In this document: one piece after another, positions 24,408-62,067 of the stretch | Layout of the letters: each line of letters opens with the position of its first letter | Position numbering within the stretch: position 1 is the stretch's first letter | From: Patescibacteria group bacterium | GTDB taxonomy: Bacteria; Patescibacteriota; WWE3; JAMCXX01 | Assembly: GCA_023474425.1 (NCBI GenBank) | Contig: JAMCXX010000004.1 | Span: forward strand, 148,729-212,728 | Length of the DNA stretch: 64,000 nucleotides | Direction: 5' to 3' | Translations under genes and position numbers: made by a program | The notes under the pieces: model-generated | Databases searched by the model: none | What the model was told of the DNA's origin: nothing | The model's input: only the letters and a program-made list of their open reading frames with translations

Positions 24408-25213
24408 TAAATATTTACCCGCATTTGGAGTTCGGGATCATAAAACCATTTACGTTCGTTACCGTCATCATAATAGTGTTTTATTTTAAGCCGGTAAAAG
24501 ACGGCCAAGGTGTCTTTAAGCATCCGAAAAATCGTTCTTAACATTGAGGCTTGGGTCAGAGAGGCAAAAGAGTGTTTGACAATAACCGGCGCTTCGTAAA
24601 TTCTTTTAAAACCTAGGTGGTGCGCTACCGCCAATATTTCAATGTCAATAGCGTAATCTTTAACCATAAGCCGCGGCATCACTCTTTCCAGAACCTCCCG
24701 ACGAAAAACTTTTAAACCCGTCTGCGTGTCCCTAATCCGTAGCCCGAAAAGTAGCCGCACCAGCATTTGGTATCCGAAACTGGTAAAACGGCGAACCATT
24801 GGGTAATCAACTTGGGAAACCGGATGCCTCTTGGAGGCCACAATGGCATCGGCTTTATACCATTCCATGTGTGAGAGGAGCATGGAAATACCCAATGGGT
24901 CAATATCCATCCCGGCATCCAAAAAAACGATTCTCCCGCCCCGAGCTTTGGCGGAACCGAACCGCAGTGCGTATCCCTTGCCGCGGTTTCTCCCGGGATA
25001 GCCAAAAACCCGAAGCCTACCACCTTCAATCTCTCTGGCTTTCTCGAAGGTCCCGTCCATGGTGCCGTCGGCGACGACGATTAATTCGTAATTTAAATTC
25101 AGGGAATTAAGAATTTTATCAACGTTTCTAAGGTCGGTTTGAATCGTCCTTTCCTGCCGGAAAGCCGGCATAACCACGCTGATTAAATTCGACAAGTCAG
25201 TTTCTTCGTTCAT
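24407..25213 (-). CDS. GT2 glycosyltransferase, polyprenol-phosphate hexose synthase-like
   Basis: Start moved to the ATG at 25213 (MNEETDLSNLISVVMPAF...). ELIVVADGTMDGT, NRGKGYALRFG and FLDAGMDIDP. Confidence 0.7.
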   Translation of the reverse strand: MNEETDLSNLISVVMPAFRQERTIQTDLRNVDKILNSLNLNYELIVVADGTMDGTFEKAREIEGGRLRVFGYPGRNRGKGYALRFGSAKARGGRIVFLDAGMDIDPLGISMLLSHMEWYKADAIVASKRHPVSQVDYPMVRRFTSFGYQMLVRLLFGLRIRDTQTGLKVFRREVLERVMPRLMVKDYAIDIEILAVAHHLGFKRIYEAPVIVKHSFASLTQASMLRTIFRMLKDTLAVFYRLKIKHYYDDGNERKWFYDPELQMRVNI

Positions 25214-26462: not shown

Positions 26463-27447
26463 CGCGGGAAAATCCATAGGGGTGGGTTCGGTGCCACAAA
26501 TAGGCGCTTTCAACAATTTCTTTAAGGCCCCTCTTTGCCCGCCAGCCAAGTTCCCGTTCAACTTTGCTCACATCGGCGAACGAGGCCGGCCAATCTCCGG
26601 CCCGGCGGGGCGCCTCTTTGACTTTAAAATCGGCTCCCGAAACTTCTTTAACCAAATCTATAATCTCCCGATTCGAAACTCCCCGGCCGGTACCCAAGTT
26701 AAAAACCAAAAAACAAGAATCCGTATTCTCCAAACTTTTCAAAACCAGGCTATGAGCTTCGGCCAAGTCTTCAACGTGAATATAATCCCGCACGGCCGTA
26801 CCGTCGTGGGTCGGATAATCGGTGCCGTAAAGTTTAAGCTCTCCGCGCCGTCCCAAGGCCGTCTGAATAACCAAAGGAATCAAATGCGTTTCCGGGTTGT
26901 GACTCTCTCCCAAGGAACCGTCGGCAAGGGCTCCGGCGGCATTAAAATACCTAAGCACGGCCACCTTAAATCCGTTGGAGGATGAGACGGATCTAAGAAT
27001 TTCCTCAAAAAAATACTTGCTTTGCGAGTAATAACTTGTGATTTTAATCGGACTTAGCTCACTAAAGGGCGGCTCGCCGTCCCCGTAAACTCCGGCCGTA
27101 GAAGAAAAAACGATTCGCCGGACACCGCTTTTGTCTAACGCCTTAAGCAGATTAATTCCTCCGGCCACGTTGTTTTCGAAAAACTTCAGAGGATTGGCCA
27201 TTGACTCTCCAGACTCAATATACCCGGCAAAATGAATAACCGCGTCGAATGCCGAAGATTCCGTAAGACTAACAATCGCCGCCAAATCACGTAAGTCGCC
27301 CTGAACAAATTTGGCCCGGTTGTCTACCGCCTGCCGATGCCCATTTTCTAAAGCGTCAAAAACGGTGACCGAGTGCCCTTCCTCCAAAAGTTTTTTTACG
27401 GTAACACTGCCAATAAAACCGGCTCCGCCCGTGACTAAAACGTTCAT
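26452..27447 (-). CDS. galE: UDP-glucose 4-epimerase
   Basis: MNVLVTGGAGFIGS, YYSQSKYFFE (YxxxK) and RYFNAAGA. The start ATG at 27447 overlaps the upstream stop as ATGA. Confidence 0.8.
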   Translation of the reverse strand: MNVLVTGGAGFIGSVTVKKLLEEGHSVTVFDALENGHRQAVDNRAKFVQGDLRDLAAIVSLTESSAFDAVIHFAGYIESGESMANPLKFFENNVAGGINLLKALDKSGVRRIVFSSTAGVYGDGEPPFSELSPIKITSYYSQSKYFFEEILRSVSSSNGFKVAVLRYFNAAGALADGSLGESHNPETHLIPLVIQTALGRRGELKLYGTDYPTHDGTAVRDYIHVEDLAEAHSLVLKSLENTDSCFLVFNLGTGRGVSNREIIDLVKEVSGADFKVKEAPRRAGDWPASFADVSKVERELGWRAKRGLKEIVESAYLWHRTHPYGFSRDEI

Positions 27448-32269: not shown

Positions 32270-32613
32270 AATACAAAACCTAAGAAACCGCCCAAAGTGT
32301 CAATTAAAACATCCACGGCGTGGGAGCCCCGGCCGGGTACGAACCTCTGGTGAAACTCATCGGTTACTCCGTAAAGAAAAACGAAAAACAATCCATAGAA
32401 AACTTTTTTCTTCTCAATTTCCCAGAAATTTCTGGCAACACTCAAGTAATACAACAGATACAAAACTCCATACTCAAACAAATGAACGGATTTATGGACC
32501 ACAAAATCAACAACGCTGTTCCGCGAGGCGTGCACGGACGGCAGGCTGGAACCCAAAAAAATTAAGGCAGCCCAAACTAAAAGAGGAAGTTGAAGCCTAA
32601 ACCTTTTTTCCAT
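32224..32613 (-). CDS. VanZ-family membrane protein
   Basis: Start moved to the ATG at 32613 (MEKRFRLQLPLLVWAALIFLGSS...). KSVHLFEYGVL and DEFHQRFVPGRGSHAVDVLIDTLG. Confidence 0.7.
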   Translation of the reverse strand: MEKRFRLQLPLLVWAALIFLGSSLPSVHASRNSVVDFVVHKSVHLFEYGVLYLLYYLSVARNFWEIEKKKVFYGLFFVFLYGVTDEFHQRFVPGRGSHAVDVLIDTLGGFLGFVLWKFLRQRALQRRKI

Positions 32614-34303
32614 ACATTCTAATTCTAACGGACAAACCAATAAATATGAAAATCCAACCCAAAACATAAAAATCACCATTAATACCGGTGCGGGGAAGTT
32701 CCTGGATTTGCGCTCCGAGGATCGAGCCTTTTATTATTTCGGCTTCGGTGATATTAACAATATCGCTCTGGAAACGTGGTAGAATCCGGTAATTCCGGTC
32801 TCCGCTTTTTAAAAGTCCGTACTGGGAAACGATCCCTACCACCTTAACCAAATCACCCGATGAGAGCTTAGGCTTCACAATACCGGTAGAATCTTTAATG
32901 TAGACCTTAACCCGACCCGAGCCGTCGTTAAGATAAAATGTATCGCCGCTCTGCTCCTCCAATTTTCCCTCAACTTTCACCAAGCTTCCCTCGTAATTTT
33001 CGGTGGCCTCGCCGGTGAGTATACCGCGGGGTTCAACATTAAGGGCATCCGGCTGAATTAGAGTGACTGTTTCCGTTTTAATGTATTTCTCCCCGTTGCT
33101 CTCCTCAAGAGTACTGGAAACTTTCACCTTATCACCCAAACCAAGCTTGGAATCCGGTGTCTGACTGCAGGAAATTTTAATACCCGACTCCTTGTCCCAA
33201 ACATAAAGTTCTTTGTCACCCAAAAGTCCCGGCGGCGAGGAAATATATGCCTCCAAAGAAATCTTGTGGCCCAGAGGCAAACTCTTTATTTCGGTAATTA
33301 TACCCTTAAAGATCTCCGGATCTCCGGCCAAAACATTAGCCGCTCCGGGCGTGGGCTGGGAAGTTTCCTCCCATGAACCGTTAATTAGGGCGTACGAAAA
33401 ACCCAATTTAGATTCGCTATAATCAACTGTATCGGAAACCACCCCATCCGGCCTAATGAGACGAACTTGATCGGCCTCGCTGTTATTTAGAATACTGGAA
33501 GATTTATTGGGGTCTGAGGAGAAATAAAAAACAAAGTAGCCCGAAGACGGCAATGTGGCGCTAAAGGTTTTGGGCGAAGAGCCGCCGTCTTTATCGTCAA
33601 TCTGCCAGCCGGTTAACTCGGCCGCAGCCGTATCCGAAGAATTATATAGCTCCACCCACTCGCTGCCCATCTTGGGATTGGGCATAAATTCGTTGATTTT
33701 AACCGTCTGCGGGTAGTTGACAGGAACCGGCTCTTTGTATGCCTGACCGGGAGTGCCTCCGGCCGTGTAACTTCCAACCCAGTTGGACCCGTCATTAACA
33801 CCGGCAAGGTTTTCCTTCTCAATACTGTGTCCCTTGCCCAAAGTTCCCCGCCAGCTTGTTTCGTAAGTAACCTGGGCAAAAGGCGTGCCGTTGGAACCTT
33901 CGCGAAAACCAAGCAGCTGCGAAGTGTTATTTAAATCCATTGACGACGCTTCCAAAAGAATCCCGTTGTAATCCGGATAAAGGTTTTTAAAACTTATCGC
34001 ACTGTGGGCAATCACAAAATAGCTACGAGCATCTACCGTTGCCTCTTTTTCTCCGCTGGGCATCTTTAAAAGGCGATTATCGCTGCCGTCAATTAATCTT
34101 AAAGAATCGGCGGAGGACCCAAGAGTAATAGTTGTATCGGCGGACCCGTTGTTATATACTTCAACCCACTCATCATCGTTGCCGGAACTCTGCGGCTCAT
34201 ACATAATCTCCGAAACAATAAAGTCTTGAGACGAAGCAAAAATTTGATCGCCGAACAAAAACAGGAACGAAAGAAAAAACAGAAAAATAAACTTTACATT
34301 CAT
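32597..34303 (-). CDS. Cell-surface protein: two lamin-tail domains, an OB-fold and an LPXTG-type sortase signal
   Basis: Signal peptide. LTD motifs SEIMYEPQSSGNDDEWVEVYNNG and INEFMPNPKMGSEWVELYNSS. OB-like GSLVKVEGKLEEQSGDTFYLNDGSGRVKVYI. C-terminal LPRTG, a hydrophobic helix and a basic tail. Confidence 0.75.
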   Translation of the reverse strand: MNVKFIFLFFLSFLFLFGDQIFASSQDFIVSEIMYEPQSSGNDDEWVEVYNNGSADTTITLGSSADSLRLIDGSDNRLLKMPSGEKEATVDARSYFVIAHSAISFKNLYPDYNGILLEASSMDLNNTSQLLGFREGSNGTPFAQVTYETSWRGTLGKGHSIEKENLAGVNDGSNWVGSYTAGGTPGQAYKEPVPVNYPQTVKINEFMPNPKMGSEWVELYNSSDTAAAELTGWQIDDKDGGSSPKTFSATLPSSGYFVFYFSSDPNKSSSILNNSEADQVRLIRPDGVVSDTVDYSESKLGFSYALINGSWEETSQPTPGAANVLAGDPEIFKGIITEIKSLPLGHKISLEAYISSPPGLLGDKELYVWDKESGIKISCSQTPDSKLGLGDKVKVSSTLEESNGEKYIKTETVTLIQPDALNVEPRGILTGEATENYEGSLVKVEGKLEEQSGDTFYLNDGSGRVKVYIKDSTGIVKPKLSSGDLVKVVGIVSQYGLLKSGDRNYRILPRFQSDIVNITEAEIIKGSILGAQIQELPRTGINGDFYVLGWIFIFIGLSVRIRMYGKKV

Positions 34304-34329
34304 CGCAAAGAGCCCGCAGGGTAATATGA

Positions 34330-34442
34330 CAAAATGGCATTCCGCAGCGTGAGCGACCTGCCCGCATTGCTACGCAAAGCGTTGCAGGCGGGGGCTTAGC
34401 GCCCCGCCAGTGTCTTTCCTGGCGGGGACAGCGGCCATTTTG
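34330..34442 (-). ncRNA. Candidate structured RNA or cis-regulatory element, copy 1; class unknown
   Basis: Closing stem caaaatggc (34330-38) / gccattttg (34434-42). A 9-bp hairpin 34402-10 / 34419-27 with loop tgtctttc. A second hairpin at 34361-92. A homologous covarying copy lies at 61271-61356. The strand is assigned from gene context only. Confidence 0.5.
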
Positions 34443-34471
34443 GCGCTTACCCGAGGGCTCGCCCAAATCAA

Positions 34472-35734
34472 CTAATTCACGGTTACTCTCTCGACTTCGG
34501 TAATAGCGCTCAACGGATACTTGCTGGTAAAACTTATATCGTGCCCATTTTCCACAAACGGATCATCCATTACATAGTTCCCCCCGGAGCCGCTCTTTAG
34601 AACCACAAAGTGAGCGGGACCTCTGTAGAGACCCACGATTACCGGCCGTCCGGCGGCCAGCTCGCTGTCAATACTGGCCGTGGTCGGCGAAAGACTGACC
34701 CGCAAAATCCGAACGCCGTTAACGGTAATATCTTTCCACAAATAAGCGGTGGAGCTGTCCGGACTAAAAAAAGCCGCAGGATTGGCGGCAATATCGGCCG
34801 GATTAAGACCTTTCTGGTAGTGGCTGGCGATCATGGCGCTCGAAGATACAAGACAGCCATACTCGGCCACGGAAAGAGTGGAACTTCCCAAAGGCTTGGC
34901 TCCCCAACTAGAGTCTCTCTGGTTATAATAACAGCCCCAGCCGTCGCAAAAAGTCTGATTGGACAAAAGACTGGCGCCACCCTGCAGATTAACAAATCTC
35001 TGGATAGCCGCCTGCTCGGCAATCACCTGGGCTAAAAGCTGCTGGTATCTGTTTTCGTCGCTGGCTGTAGCCTGCAATAGGTTCTGCTTCTCGGCTCTTT
35101 GCGTTTGCAGAGATTGGTTGTAGGCCTCCAAGTTCTTCTTGGTCGCTTCGATTTGATCTTTTAAAACCTGCACCTGGTCTTTTTTGTCGCCCAAAACAAT
35201 TTTTTGCGATTGGAAAGCCTGCTGGGTATCCTCCATTTGCAAAAGATATTTACTGTCCTGAAGCTCAAAAACCTGCAGGTATTTAAGACGGTCAATGAAA
35301 TAGGAAAAATCCTGCCCGCCCAAAACAAGGTCAAGGGGGGTTACGGCGGAACTGCGATAGAATGCGTTGGCCCGACCGGCGAATATGGATTTCTGACGGT
35401 CAAGCGTTTGGCCGAGAGTATCAATTTTTGACGAAACCAAACCAATGTCGCTGGTCAGTTTTTCCAACTCGGCCTCATTTAGTACGATTTGCGTCTTGGC
35501 CTGTTCAATTTTAATTTGGGTTATATTGATTTGACTGTCCATGAGACTGATTTGATTCTGAAGAGTCTTTTTCTGGCTTTGCAGTGAAGCAATCTTATCT
35601 TCATACACCTTTTGTTGCTCCTGCAAACTTTTAAGCTGATCTTCCGTGGTATCGGCGAGACTAATCTTCCCGCTTCCTACCCCAATAAAAAGAAAAAATA
35701 AAAAAAGGAGAAACAACCGGGCAGTATTATTCAT
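34472..35734 (-). CDS. Secreted coiled-coil protein with a C-terminal papain-like (C39-like/CHAP-like) Cys-His peptidase domain; putative FtsEX-controlled cell-wall hydrolase
   Basis: Signal peptide, ~230 aa of heptad-rich Q/L/K sequence, then YYNQRDSSWG...AEYGCLVSSSAMIASHY...GRPVIVGLYRGPAHFVVL...MDDPF. Immediately downstream of ftsE-ftsX. Confidence 0.55.
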   Translation of the reverse strand: MNNTARLFLLFLFFLFIGVGSGKISLADTTEDQLKSLQEQQKVYEDKIASLQSQKKTLQNQISLMDSQINITQIKIEQAKTQIVLNEAELEKLTSDIGLVSSKIDTLGQTLDRQKSIFAGRANAFYRSSAVTPLDLVLGGQDFSYFIDRLKYLQVFELQDSKYLLQMEDTQQAFQSQKIVLGDKKDQVQVLKDQIEATKKNLEAYNQSLQTQRAEKQNLLQATASDENRYQQLLAQVIAEQAAIQRFVNLQGGASLLSNQTFCDGWGCYYNQRDSSWGAKPLGSSTLSVAEYGCLVSSSAMIASHYQKGLNPADIAANPAAFFSPDSSTAYLWKDITVNGVRILRVSLSPTTASIDSELAAGRPVIVGLYRGPAHFVVLKSGSGGNYVMDDPFVENGHDISFTSKYPLSAITEVERVTVN

Positions 35735-41331: not shown

Positions 41332-41372
41332 AAACTTTTCAAATTAAGAATACCAGTTTCCCCGTCCGGCTG

Positions 41373-42209
41373 TTAACCGACTAAGCCGCGCAGAATCTCC
41401 AAGTTCTTTTTATCCGGTCCTTTATTGTCAAACCCGGGCGTTTCGATTATGAAAGGCAGCTCTTTAAGTAAAGGGTGATTAAGAATATTTTTGAAGCCGT
41501 CGAGACCAATAAACCCCCGGCCAATATTTTCATGCCGGTCCCGAAGTGACCCCAAAGGAAATTTGGAATCATTGGTGTGCACCGCCACTAACTTTTTAAG
41601 AAGTCCCAACGCCTGCAATTTATTGATAACATCATCCAACCCTTGAGGCAGATTTATTGGATATCCGGCGGCAAAGGCATGCTGGGTATCCAAACAAACG
41701 GCGGTCCGTGAACTATCTGCGGCCGAAACAAGTTCCGCTAGCTCTTCGAACCTAGTACCAATCCCGCCGCCCTGACCGGCGTTGTTCTCAAAAATTAAGA
41801 GACCGGCTTCTGTTTGAGCGAGAACCGTTTTGACGGCCTCAACCACCCTCTTTTTTACGGAATCAAACCCCTGACCATGATGAGAACCGAGATGAAAAAT
41901 AACGCCCTGGGCGGCCGCTTTTTGGCATAGGTTTAAATAAAATATCAGGGATTTTATGGAGAGTTCGAAAAGAGTTTTGTTCGGCGAACCCAAGTTGATT
42001 AAATAAACACCGTGGAAAAAAATTGGCGCCATCTTGGCCGACTTAACCGCGCGTCGAAACCGCTCAAAATCTTCCTCACTATAATTAATTGTATTAAAAC
42101 TCCTGGGCGAAGAACCAAAAATCTGAAAGGTTTGCGAACCGAGAGACACGGCCCTCTCAACGGCCCGGTAGAGCCCTCCGGAAATCGAGACGTGCGCTCC
42201 CAGTTTCAT
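41373..42209 (-). CDS. nfo: Endonuclease IV (AP endonuclease)
   Basis: Start at the ATG at 42209 (MKLGAHVSISGGL...), with ATGA overlap onto the upstream gene. HGVYLINL, LDTQHAFAAGY and HTNDSK. Confidence 0.8.
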   Translation of the reverse strand: MKLGAHVSISGGLYRAVERAVSLGSQTFQIFGSSPRSFNTINYSEEDFERFRRAVKSAKMAPIFFHGVYLINLGSPNKTLFELSIKSLIFYLNLCQKAAAQGVIFHLGSHHGQGFDSVKKRVVEAVKTVLAQTEAGLLIFENNAGQGGGIGTRFEELAELVSAADSSRTAVCLDTQHAFAAGYPINLPQGLDDVINKLQALGLLKKLVAVHTNDSKFPLGSLRDRHENIGRGFIGLDGFKNILNHPLLKELPFIIETPGFDNKGPDKKNLEILRGLVG

Positions 42210-43501: not shown

Positions 43502-43810
43502 TTACTTTCGCCAAAGGTAGCGCTCAAGATCTACACGATACTCGGAGCTAAATTTAACACCGTCTTTCCAAAGCCTCCTCTTCTGCTCCAGGTAACCGCC
43601 TAAAGAATAATTTTTGGCCAAAGAACCATTGGCAAAGACGACTCGGTGACAGGGAATATTAACATCCTGATTACCAAAAACGGCCCAACCTACCTTGCGG
43701 GCGTCCCGAATACCAACCAATGATGCGATTTGACCGTATGTAGCCACTTTTCCTTTAGGAATTCTTTTGACTACATTTCTAATTCTTTCAAACAAACCAG
43801 AATTTTTCAT
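43502..43810 (-). CDS. MGMT-family protein (O6-alkylguanine-DNA alkyltransferase DNA-binding/active-site domain only)
   Basis: IPKGKVATYGQIA...IPCHRVV, with the PCHR active-site motif. 102 aa. Confidence 0.7.
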   Translation of the reverse strand: MKNSGLFERIRNVVKRIPKGKVATYGQIASLVGIRDARKVGWAVFGNQDVNIPCHRVVFANGSLAKNYSLGGYLEQKRRLWKDGVKFSSEYRVDLERYLWRK

Positions 43811-44079
43811 TGCCTCTTCCGGCGAACGACACGACGAGCTTTAGCCCCAGGCGAACTCTTTCTAAGATCTGCAATTTCCTCTCTAATCTGCTCAATCATA
43901 AGGCTGATTTTATCCACGTCGGCGTTCATTAGATCATAGGCGGGGTTATCGTGCCAGCCATCCCCGCCCAAATAAAAAATGTCGTTCGATTTTCTTAGAG
44001 TTTTGGAAAGCCTGTCTTTAAGGGCAGCCAGTTCCTTTTCCAGCTCCTCAATCTTTATTTCCCGGCTGATTTTGACCAT
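43807..44079 (-). CDS. Small coiled-coil protein resembling a stand-alone GreA N-terminal domain
   Basis: 90 aa. Helix, tip (GDGWHDNPAY versus the GreA GDLKENAEY), helix, then a basic tail. ATGA overlap with the MGMT gene. Confidence 0.35.
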   Translation of the reverse strand: MVKISREIKIEELEKELAALKDRLSKTLRKSNDIFYLGGDGWHDNPAYDLMNADVDKISLMIEQIREEIADLRKSSPGAKARRVVRRKRQ

Positions 44080-44102
44080 AATATATTCTAACTATCTAAG
44101 CT

Positions 44103-59046: not shown

Positions 59047-61215
59047 CTACAACCCGATCTGTGACGCGATTCCTTTCATCGCCTTAAGAACAATCTCGAT
59101 AAACTCCGCAAGTTTTATGCCTAACTTTTCTTCGCATTGTTCAATTTGCCTGCGGTCTACACCCGCGGCAAATTCTTTGCTCTTCCATTTTTTAAGCACC
59201 GATTCAACTTCGACGGATGATATTTTTTTGTCCGGTCGGACTAAAGCTACCGAGACTATAAAACCGGTCAGTTCGTCGCAGCACTCAAGCGCCCATTCCA
59301 TATTTGACTGAATCTCGGAAAGATTGGTGTGGCGCCGATTGTGAGATTTAAGCCCTTGCACCACCGGGCCTTCGCGGCGACCTTCTCCGGAAAGCCATTC
59401 CAGAGCCGCCATCGTGTGACGGGACGGTTCGGCTTTGGTCTCTTCCCAATCGGCATCGTGAATTAAGCCCAGCGCTCCCCACGCCTCTTCATTTCCCCCA
59501 AATTTTCGGGCCAGAGCCCTCATGGCCGCCTCTACGGCCAAGCAGTGCCGCAGCAGGTTTTGGTTTTTAATGTGACTGCTCACAATTTGGAAAACTTTTT
59601 CCCTTGACGGAAAGTCCCCCACAGGTTCCAGAGGTAGCTTAGTCCCTCCCTCTTTGTCATTGCGAGGTGTTCGGCCCACGGCAATCTCTGCATCATTAGA
59701 TGACGTAATAGATTGCTTCACTTCGTTCGCAATGACGGAGGAAATGGGGGCACCCTCTGGCCTTAGCGTGGGGAAAAGAATTACATCTTTAAGGGTATGC
59801 CTACCGGTAAGGACGGAAACGAACCGGTCCACTCCCATGCCCCAACCGGCTGTGGGCGGCATGCCGTACTCCAAAGCCCGAATGTAATCTTCGTCCAAAA
59901 CCTGGTACTCGGCCAATCCCTCTTTGTTCATTTCCGCTTCCTTTTCCCATCGGCTCCTCTGATCAATCGGATCGTTAAGTTCGTTGTAGGCATTCACCAT
60001 CTCCCGCCCGGCAATAAGAAGCTGAAAACTGGCCGCCTTAGATTCGTCATCCTCTTTGCGCTTGGCTAAAGGCTTCATTTCGTAGGGGTGGTCCACAAGA
60101 AATAGCGGCCCAAAAAGGTGTGGCCGCACCAATTTTTTGTAGAGCTCGTCCAAAAGCGGGGCGTAGCCCACCACTCCTTCCAAATCAATTTTTAAACCGG
60201 ACTCTTTAATGAACCTGACGGCCTCTTCAAAACTGCGCACCCGGTCAACGTCCAATCCGGTATATTTAATTATAGCATCATGGAAGGTTAGCCGCGGCCA
60301 GGGTGGCGTAAAATCAATAACATTACCTTCGAAATCCACCATTGGCTTACCCAAAACTTTCTCAACCGTCTTAGAGAGCAGTTCTTCGGTAAAACACATG
60401 AGCTTTTCGTAGTCCGAGTAAGCCCAGTAAAATTCCAGCATGGTAAATTCCGGATTATGCTCGCGGTCAATGCCTTCGTTGCGGAAATCTTTGCCGATTT
60501 CGTAAACCTTTTCGAACCCTCCGACAATCAGCCGTTTGAGGTAAAGCTCGTCGGAAATACGCAAATAAAGATTTAAATCCAAGGACTCGTGGTGAGTCAC
60601 AAAAGGCTTGGCCGTGGCCCCGCCGTAAATGGGCTGCAATACGGGCGTTTCTACTTCCAAAAATCCCTCGGCCTTCAAAAGACGGCGAAGCTCTCCCACC
60701 ACCAGGCTTCTCACTTCAAAAACACTTTTGGAATCGGGATTAATTAGCAAATCCACATAGCGCTGGCGATAAATCTCTTCTTTATCTCTAAGACCGTAAA
60801 AATCGCTTGGCAGCGGCCGCAGAGATTTAGTGAGTATGGAAAAACTCTTGACGCGAAGGGTGAGCTCGCCGGCCGCCGTTTTAAAAAGCTGGCCGGTAGC
60901 AACAATAAAGTCGCCCAGGTCCAAAAGCGACAAATGTTCGTAAGTTTTTTGACCCAATTCCGAGAGACTAAAAAAAAGTTGGATTTTACCCGATTCATCA
61001 ACCAGATCGGCAAATGTGGAACCGCCGTGGGCCCTAATCGCCCGCAATCTTCCGGCCACCGACGCTTCGGTTTCCAAAGTCTTCTCCAACAATCCGCCAA
61101 CAGGCTCTCGGATTATTTTTGGCTGACTAAAGGGGTTAAAACCCAATTTCTTAAATTTTTCCAGCTTTTGCAAACGGGCTTGGCGTAACTCATTGAACGG
61201 CTGCGGCATAAGCAT
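59047..61215 (-). CDS. lysS: Lysyl-tRNA synthetase (class II) fused to a C-terminal HD-domain phosphohydrolase module
   Basis: The first ~495 aa are a complete LysRS (OB fold plus class II motifs, ending ILFPTLRPE). A ~35-aa linker follows. The last ~190 aa are an HD/HDIG-type module (LLRHCLAVEAAM...GLIHDADWE...VALVRPDKK). Confidence 0.85.
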   Translation of the reverse strand: MLMPQPFNELRQARLQKLEKFKKLGFNPFSQPKIIREPVGGLLEKTLETEASVAGRLRAIRAHGGSTFADLVDESGKIQLFFSLSELGQKTYEHLSLLDLGDFIVATGQLFKTAAGELTLRVKSFSILTKSLRPLPSDFYGLRDKEEIYRQRYVDLLINPDSKSVFEVRSLVVGELRRLLKAEGFLEVETPVLQPIYGGATAKPFVTHHESLDLNLYLRISDELYLKRLIVGGFEKVYEIGKDFRNEGIDREHNPEFTMLEFYWAYSDYEKLMCFTEELLSKTVEKVLGKPMVDFEGNVIDFTPPWPRLTFHDAIIKYTGLDVDRVRSFEEAVRFIKESGLKIDLEGVVGYAPLLDELYKKLVRPHLFGPLFLVDHPYEMKPLAKRKEDDESKAASFQLLIAGREMVNAYNELNDPIDQRSRWEKEAEMNKEGLAEYQVLDEDYIRALEYGMPPTAGWGMGVDRFVSVLTGRHTLKDVILFPTLRPEGAPISSVIANEVKQSITSSNDAEIAVGRTPRNDKEGGTKLPLEPVGDFPSREKVFQIVSSHIKNQNLLRHCLAVEAAMRALARKFGGNEEAWGALGLIHDADWEETKAEPSRHTMAALEWLSGEGRREGPVVQGLKSHNRRHTNLSEIQSNMEWALECCDELTGFIVSVALVRPDKKISSVEVESVLKKWKSKEFAAGVDRRQIEQCEEKLGIKLAEFIEIVLKAMKGIASQIGL
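59656..59736. repeat. GTCAT-type palindromic repeat, copy E, in frame inside the lysS-HD linker
   Basis: Perfect 10-bp termini gtcattgcga / tcgcaatgac. Nested inverted repeat gcaatct / agattgc. 81 nt, which is 27 codons. Confidence 0.75.
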
Positions 61216-61270
61216 ATTTTAGGACAAAAGGAATAATTATGATACTAATAAAAACAATCCGCAGCAAAGG

Positions 61271-61356
61271 TTTTTCTCGCGGCATTCCGCAGTCCGCAGA
61301 CGAGGCATAGCGCTGCGAAAGTCTCTTTCCTTTCGCAGACAGCGGCCGCGAAAAAA
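61271..61356 (-). ncRNA. Candidate structured RNA or cis-regulatory element, copy 2; homologous to 34330-34442
   Basis: Closing stem tttttctcgcggc / gccgcgaaaaaa. A 9-bp hairpin 61313-21 / 61330-38 with loop tctctttc. Conserved blocks ggcattccgcag, ggcatagcgc and gacagcggcc are shared with copy 1. Confidence 0.5.
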
Positions 61357-61383
61357 CCGTAGCGAGGATTGTGAAACACTTGA

Positions 61384-61869
61384 TTAAAAAATTTTGAGGA
61401 TGGTGTAAATAAGCTTGCCCACCGGCGCTTCCACCTCGGCCTTGTCGCCGGTTTTCTTGCCCAAAAGCGCCTGACCCAAAGGCGATTCATGCGATATTTT
61501 GTTTTTATTGGGGTCGGCTTCGAGCTCGCCCACAATTTCAAATTCCTGCTCGCTGCCCTCCAGATGAACCAAAACACGACTGCCAACACTCACCTGCGAC
61601 TCGCGCGGTTCCCGGACGTCTTTTTTGGTAATTACTTCGGCTCTTTTTACCACCTCTTCGAGTTCAGTAATGCGGCCTTCAATAAAGGCCTGCTCTTCCA
61701 AAGCCGACTCGTATTCCGAATTTTCGGTTATATCGCCAAGCTCCCGGGCGGACTGAATTCGCTCGGCTACTTCCTTGCGTTTGGCGGTTGTTAAATTTTC
61801 CAGCTCATTCTTTAGTTTTTCTAAGCCCTGCGCGGTAACAAAAAATTTCCCGCCTTTGTTATTTTCCAT
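61384..61869 (-). CDS. greA: Transcription elongation factor GreA
   Basis: LEKLKNELENL...RELGDITENSEYESA, with a C-terminal FKBP-like domain (SHESPLGQALLGKKTGD). Start at the ATG at 61869. Confidence 0.9.
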   Translation of the reverse strand: MENNKGGKFFVTAQGLEKLKNELENLTTAKRKEVAERIQSARELGDITENSEYESALEEQAFIEGRITELEEVVKRAEVITKKDVREPRESQVSVGSRVLVHLEGSEQEFEIVGELEADPNKNKISHESPLGQALLGKKTGDKAEVEAPVGKLIYTILKIF

Positions 61870-62067
61870 AATTCGCAAAAGCTAAAATACTCTATATAAA
61901 CACTTATGTATTTTGGATACTTTCCCCTCTAACCGTAAAAGTTCGCGGAACCAACAACGGCTCAATTTAAAACTACGCTTTCCCGCTTGTCAAGATGTGT
62001 ATCTTATGGGCCTCTAAGTGATTCTGCTGGACACCTCCCTTCCACCATTGCTAAACTAACCTTGACC

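Follow-up and report, generated by a model that had tools for sequence, protein, structure and literature searches.

The DNA analysed here, a stretch of 64,000 nucleotides (nt) from contig JAMCXX010000004.1 of a Patescibacteria group bacterium (the window), contains in the spacer between greA and lysS an element that combines conserved single strands with variable helices. This occurrence is designated copy 2. Copy 1 lies in a second spacer (34304-34471) between a gene for a PcsB-like protein (34472-35734) and a gene for a surface protein with a lamin tail domain (LTD; 32597-34303), the assignments being from Pfam. Both copies are in co-directional operons and in the sense orientation, and their parts are listed in Table 1 together with the neighbors of two homologues, L047 and L055, which are described below. 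On the minus strand, copy 2 comprises in order GGUUUUUUCGCGGC (the 5' strand of helix P1), the junction strand CGCUGU, the hairpin P2 (CUGCGAAAG-GAAAGAGA-CUUUCGCAG), CGCUAUGCC, the variable segment UCGUCUGCGGA, CUGCGGAAU, and GCCGCGAGAAAAACC (the 3' strand of P1). In copy 1 the blocks follow one another in this order too, but the stems differ and a hairpin is added behind the second block; its variable region consists of a 36-nt hairpin insert upstream of UCG, followed by CUCACG.

Table 1. Features of the two window copies, in window coordinates, and genes adjoining the four family members (distances are from the element to the stop or start codon, or to the tRNA gene; bp, base pairs; ORF, open reading frame)
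Feature	Coordinates	Strand	Description or basis	Upstream	Downstream
greA-lysS spacer, 168 nt	greA 61384-61878; lysS-HD 59047-61215	minus	ORFs		
Copy 2, full element including outer helix P0	~61254-61372	minus	whole-spacer folds, flank duplex test, ORFs	greA stop, 11 nt	lysS ATG, 38 nt
Copy 2, core	61269-61358	minus	P1 (61345-61358 with 61269-83) enclosing a three-way junction; covariance-model match 61275-61353		
Block A, GGCCGCUGUC	61338-61347	minus	inner P1 pairs GGC, J12 CGCUGU and first P2 base; identical in both window copies, GCCGCUGUC also in L047 and L055		
P2 hairpin, 9 bp	61313-61338	minus	CUGCGAAAG, loop GAAAGAGA, CUUUCGCAG; across the family sequence and loop vary and pairing is kept		
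Block B, GCGCUAUGCC	61304-61313	minus	junction strand J23; CGCUAWGCC the same in all four members		
Variable segment, UCGUCUGCGGA	61293-61303	minus	model alignment; L047 and L055 have the 4-bp P3 hairpin here		
Block C, CUGCGGAAUGCC	61281-61292	minus	J31 and inner P1 pairs GCC; exact in all four members		
P0 3' strand, GCUGCGGAUUGU	61254-61265	minus	pairs with 61362-61372 (ACAAUCCUCGC)		
Copy 1, full element including P0	~34305-34462	minus	whole-spacer folds, flank duplex test; genes by ORFs and Pfam	PcsB-like stop, 9 nt	LTD ATG, 1 nt from helix base
Copy 1, core	34330-34442	minus	9-bp P1 and 9-bp P2, blocks A to C, extra hairpin after block B; covariance-model match 34330-34442		
L047 element				divergent sortase gene	Nudix gene
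L055 element				tRNA-Pro, 7 nt	convergent gene

A preliminary description of the two loci had listed four blocks conserved in the same order, and these are exact: ggcattccgcag (34336-47 and 61281-92), ggcWtagcgc (34393-402 and 61304-13), the hairpin loop tSTCTTTC, and gacagcggcc (34427-36 and 61338-47), all given as plus-strand text. The 9-bp hairpin stem is perfectly paired in both copies, as had been described, but the two stems do not differ completely as had been claimed, since CUGCGAAAG and CCCCGCCAG differ at four of nine positions, with all four changes compensated. The outer stems pair as well, over 9 bp in copy 1 and over 14 bp in copy 2, where the pairing is interrupted by a single bulge or G-U pair, and CUGCGGA does occur three times around copy 2 (61258-64, 61286-92 and 61293-99). 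Folds of the whole spacers show that the element is larger than was reported, because an outer helix, P0, extends both copies, and copy 1 with its P0 almost fills the spacer. The flank duplex of P0 pairs better than ~96% of shuffled sequences (44 of 1000 pair as well), and an irregular CCUCG/CUGCGG motif is common to the P0 helices of both copies.

A scan of metagenome sequences for GCCGCTGT...CTGCGGAATGCC gave, among the 120 matches listed, two true homologues, L047 and L055, which come from a Parcubacteria-like organism, so that the family has at least four members. Each of the two has a perfect 19-bp P1, a 7-bp P2 with a UGCU loop, and a 4-bp P3 and carries the same CGCUGU, CGCUAUGCC-UCG and CUGCGGAAU strands as the window copies. 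L047 and L055 differ from one another at five P1 and two P2 positions, and every one of these differences is compensated. In these homologues the closing helix is a single P1, whereas in the window copies it consists of P1 plus P0; counted in this way it is ~19-24 bp long in all four members.

The four members are identical in the inner P1 pairs GGC/GCC, CGCUGU, the first P2 pair, CGCUAWGCC and CUGCGGAAU; the three single strands stand in the order CGCUGU, CGCUAWGCC, CUGCGGAAU between paired P1 and P2. The sequence, length and loop of P2, the presence and form of P3, and outer P1 vary. The P2 loops are GAAAGAGA, GAAAGACA and, in both homologues, UGCU, so that the hairpin loop, which had been counted among the conserved blocks, is not a feature of the family. 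The organism that carries L047 has Candidatus Liptonbacteria (Parcubacteria) as its closest named relatives and thus belongs to a lineage of the candidate phyla radiation (CPR) distinct from that of the window organism, the closest LysRS of which is 70% identical and the named matches of which are Microgenomates and Daviesbacteria. The junction strands are therefore the same in a Microgenomates-like and a Parcubacteria-like organism, and a junction of ~24 single-stranded positions together with three closing base pairs is identical across two distant CPR lineages.

A covariance model (R1) was built from L047 and L055 alone, without the window sequences, and the search that had been proposed with such a model recovers both window copies, copy 2 with 45.7 bits (E 8.5e-7) and copy 1 with 35.9 bits (E 1e-4). 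Over 208 kilobases (kb), R1 gave no match beyond these two, and among chance loci selected by pattern none scored above 25 bits. The alignment of the four members (A6) is based on the model because MAFFT could not align across the variable insert. In A6, all 76 pair cells are standard, and 15 of the 20 pairs have changes on both sides; none of 500 shuffles equals this pairing, and partners slid out of register pair at 34-46%. A6 was fitted to the model, but the covariation result is robust because invariant flanks fix the positions of P1 and P2. Single short blocks are no rarer within the window than expected by chance; it is the ordered combination that counts, and this is far beyond chance. 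The proposal that the two window loci are homologous copies with stems selected for pairing is borne out by the homologues, which keep the junction strands with different, fully compensated stems. The comparison of sequences thus establishes the four loci as homologous, with an invariant junction and with pairing under selection.

No Rfam 15 family (4227 models, gathering thresholds) matches anywhere in the window, in which ARAGORN also finds no tRNA genes, so that the possibility of an existing family, raised in the preliminary description, finds no counterpart in Rfam 15. With E values up to 10, the four elements have unrelated weak matches only (microRNA hairpins, a small nucleolar RNA, and CPEB3 with 12.8-15.4 bits as compared with a threshold of 35). 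A literature search for CPR RNA motifs gave nothing relevant. There are no further copies in the 10 kb on either side of the window. A scan of GTDB genomes with GCCGCTGTN{7,12}GGAAAGAN{9,15}GCGCTA gave 16 matches, all stemless and due to chance, but the pattern required the non-conserved hairpin loop and is hence uninformative on distribution. Viral contigs scanned with four combinations of blocks contained chance matches only, and exact-protein matches to LysRS and GreA, sought as strain variants, led to the source contig alone.

No regulatory meaning was found for the position upstream of lysS. The greA-lysS spacers of four relatives with conserved synteny contain no element, nor do the regions upstream of the Nudix orthologues in two relatives or 45 kb from the closest relatives of the L047 organism, and the four members adjoin unrelated genes. 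The element is sporadic, present in at least two copies where it occurs, and tied to no gene function, and the lack of a conserved gene association argues against a leader specific to lysS. In L047, the Nudix gene has a box of its own, TGTATAATCAATCC, just ahead of the start codon and ~90 nt downstream of the element. This box, with its conserved TGTATAAT, is found in three Parcubacteria-like relatives (L047:5325-5345, L155:70-90 and L156:707-727) and is likely to be an extended -10 promoter that would give a near-leaderless mRNA. Because the box is downstream of it, the L047 element is probably outside the Nudix leader. L055 has no gene downstream on its own strand, and between the convergent gene and the element is a terminator-like hairpin that belongs to this gene.

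These contexts bear on the reading of the element as a riboswitch or other cis-regulatory leader of the downstream gene (lysS-HD, LTD or Nudix), perhaps one that would sense an Ap4A-like nucleotide, an idea that comes from the chemistry of LysRS and Nudix proteins. The downstream gene is in the sense orientation in three of the four cases, the conserved junction resembles a ligand pocket, and alternative pairings of P2 exist in the two window copies. The latter correspond to the competitor strand that had been described as tracking the stem: block C itself would compete with the P2 3' strand in copy 2, and the 5' arm of the inserted hairpin would do so in copy 1, each of them agreeing at eight of nine positions. 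The description stands for these two copies but does not extend to L047 and L055, which have no counterpart, and because the competitor is present in the window copies alone it is not evidence for a conserved switch. Moreover, the element is not kept with the downstream genes in relatives, one of these genes has its promoter downstream of the element and another member has no such gene, and no terminator or structure that would sequester a start codon was found. A lysS leader or riboswitch is unlikely because there is no conserved gene association and no expression platform and because the stability of a perfect 19-bp P1 precludes switching; we consider any reading of this type very improbable.

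Another reading is a multicopy gene for a trans-acting small RNA (sRNA), for example a sponge for a protein that would bind repeated CUGCGG or GGA boxes. All members have repeated CUGCGG boxes within and beside them, and L047 stands alone between divergent genes. However, the sense strand shows nothing resembling a promoter or terminator on either side of any copy. The window copies are wedged between a stop codon 9-11 nt away and a start codon 1-38 nt away, where an independent gene would have little space, and this reading is also highly doubtful. Some further observations concern these boxes and the flanks. The lysS coding sequence begins AUG CUU AUG CCG CAG, of which CCGCAG (61197-61202, minus strand) exactly complements the CUGCGG boxes of the element; no stable pairing of this CCGCAG was seen in the minimum-energy fold. 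In L047 (5238-5250) and L055 (1232-1244, minus strand), UCCGCGGUAA follows the element, where the window copies have CUGCGG instead; its CCGCGGUAA part is identical to a stretch of the universally conserved 530 loop of 16S rRNA. A CUAC tetranucleotide is directly 5' of P1 in copy 2 (61359-61362, minus strand) and in L047 (5138-5141), whereas copy 1 and L055 lack it. The hairpins of repetitive extragenic palindromes (REP) also have a conserved tetranucleotide beside them, but on the opposite side, and the sharing of CUAC could be a chance coincidence.

On balance, we tentatively favor, at less than even confidence, an unclassified family of CPR structured elements that most likely act as RNA, each member being an autonomous, co-transcribed module recognized by a protein or a nuclease. 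The long closing helix, the invariant junction, the free peripheral stems, and the packing between cistrons or behind a tRNA are the reasons for this preference. The self-contained module would be co-transcribed with the upstream greA, pcsB-like gene or tRNA-Pro. A conserved factor acting in trans, most likely a protein, may recognize the invariant junction. The long helix of about two turns would probably be cut or protected as at an RNase III site; a nuclease of this type, specific for double strands, could use it as a substrate, and cutting at the helix would separate or stabilize the flanking transcripts. The sense strand (the minus strand in the window, as for greA and lysS) is favored as the functional one: in this orientation, a transcription unit certainly encloses or immediately precedes three of the four members, as compared with L047 only in the antisense orientation. 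We infer the action as RNA, the functional strand, and the role in processing or protein binding, and the functions listed in the preliminary description (protein-binding element, sRNA, insulator) stay compatible with the data.

Several points weigh against this reading. The covariation rests on few independent events, since all four members come from no more than two or three organisms. The two strands fold equally well (z-scores about -3 to -4 in the window copies), and the wobble pairs do not show which of them is the functional one. L047 has neither an upstream gene on the same strand nor a recognizable promoter. Finally, full compensation without intermediates and a patchy, multicopy occurrence also fit a spreading DNA palindrome. 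Such a palindromic repeat, of the REP, miniature inverted-repeat transposable element (MITE) or attC-like type, would act as folded single-stranded DNA recognized by a recombinase or transposase, and its transcription would be incidental. In its favor, there are at least two copies per genome and yet none at the orthologous sites in all relatives examined, the core is near-identical in two distant CPR lineages, suggesting transfer, and the inverted repeats are long and perfect and fold on either strand. In contrast, the ends of the outer stem, where a transposase would act, are unconserved in sequence and length even within one genome; no target-site duplication was seen; no gene for a transposase, RAYT or integrase is nearby in the loci read (gene lists; ORFs for L047 and L055); and copies in the same genome share the junction blocks alone, unlike recently amplified repeats. 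We regard a DNA repeat as unlikely.

The conserved core is also the basis of two overlapping readings in which the RNA itself would be active. The junction could be the active core of a new CPR-specific class of RNA, either a self-cleaving ribozyme or an aptamer that senses a ligand or a protein, moving between distant CPR lineages, and to this we assign a low probability. The narrower case, a new small self-cleaving ribozyme in which the junction would serve as the catalytic core and the RNAs on either side would be parted by cleavage, is on present sequence evidence somewhat less probable again. Small ribozymes typically combine invariant junction nucleotides with stems of free sequence, one of them optional, and occur in several copies per genome, patchily and without a consistent gene association, as this element does; one member is directly 3' of a tRNA. 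Against this, no known ribozyme core and no Rfam family is matched, the core strands of the hammerhead (CUGANGA and GAAA) and the loop nucleotides of twister-sister are absent, and a closing helix of 19 bp exceeds the usual need of a ribozyme.

The genes around the elements have some features of their own. The window LysRS has a C-terminal HD-domain extension of ~200 residues (a weak match to Pfam HD), an architecture shared by many LysRS homologues from Patescibacteria, some of which have B3/4 (PF03483) besides HD or in place of it. Two tandem greA paralogues precede lysS in several relatives (L006, L007, L159, L160 and L161), as compared with a single greA in the window organism and in the P0003 organism (L002-L005). 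Hardly any Shine-Dalgarno-like motif is found at the gene starts in the window, and TATAAT-like hexamers are present ~10-25 nt from many start codons, a pattern that suggests short or absent leaders. Gaps of 600-900 nt without an ORF of at least 120 residues (greedy gene set) are at ~24408-25196, 26562-27443, 41332-42205 and 43502-44102.

In comparison with known systems, the element resembles T-box and L-box leaders in its site upstream of an aminoacyl-tRNA synthetase gene. T-box leaders have a specifier loop and a T-box sequence upstream of such a gene and extend over ~200 nt or more; here, there is no Rfam match, the core of 90 nt is far too small for a T-box, the element is also beside genes of other types, and it is absent from lysS in relatives. 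A generic riboswitch is disfavored on the grounds that the downstream genes are unrelated or missing, the orthologous leaders are without the element, and there is no expression platform. A k-turn, an intrinsic terminator and a promoter were considered and rejected, as were T-box and L-box leaders, attC sites, and the hammerhead and twister-sister ribozymes. Like attC sites, the element keeps structure over sequence, begins shortly past the upstream stop codon, and has helices with an internal loop and extrahelical bases. attC sites have R''/R' core sites (RYYYAAC...GTTRRRY) at the ends, a cassette context and an integrase. The ends here (GGUUUUUU...AAAAACC and CAAAAUGGC...GCCAUUUUG) have no core sites, no integrase was seen, and the flanking greA, lysS and ftsEX-pcsB are core genes that are syntenic in relatives and not cassettes. 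REP and MITE families have many near-identical copies with conserved termini and a linked transposase or RAYT; in the 84 kb of the window genome there are two copies that share the junction blocks alone and have unconserved termini. A DNA palindrome of the selfish type, if that is what the element is, would be the first repeat family of its kind for CPR.

The Correia elements of Neisseria and the intercistronic sites of T7 are transcribed palindromes that are cut by RNase III. By analogy, a long inverted-repeat helix between co-transcribed genes with unrelated neighbors is a plausible nuclease substrate in the present case too; the differences are that here the outer repeats vary while the inner junction is conserved, and that four members are known in place of hundreds of near-identical ones. 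The hammerhead and twister-sister ribozymes are similar in having a multi-helix junction with invariant single strands, free and optional stems, and a patchy, multicopy occurrence. The hammerhead has a three-way junction with the core CUGANGA and GAAA and a cleavage triplet, whereas the junction strands of this element are CGCUGU, CGCUAWGCC and CUGCGGAAU, with no Rfam match. The twister-sister strand GCGCUCAUG (PMC7373991) resembles block B (GCGCUAUG), with GCGCU(C)AUG shared, and twister-sister has a conserved internal loop, L1, with a C-A cleavage step, on which the SL4 hairpin loop docks (PMC5660989). The hairpin loops of the present family are unconserved, its block B is without the C of the C-A step, and Rfam gives no match.

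The closest counterparts are the orphan structured RNA motifs that comparative genomics has brought to light and that Rfam catalogues, from which the element differs in matching no Rfam 15 model and in having been seen so far in CPR metagenome sequences alone. To our knowledge, few non-coding RNAs have been described for the small genomes of CPR bacteria (Patescibacteria). An invariant junction amid freely changing stems points either to catalysis or to a molecular partner that is specific, and a processing module or ribozyme, if confirmed, would bear on the punctuation of operon transcripts in CPR, the window genome being mostly without Shine-Dalgarno sequences. The covariance model now permits a proper census. 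With the orphan motifs the element has in common an intergenic location, a length of ~90-160 nt, covarying stems, an invariant junction and the lack of an assigned function, and it is best filed beside them as a new, unclassified structured-RNA candidate.
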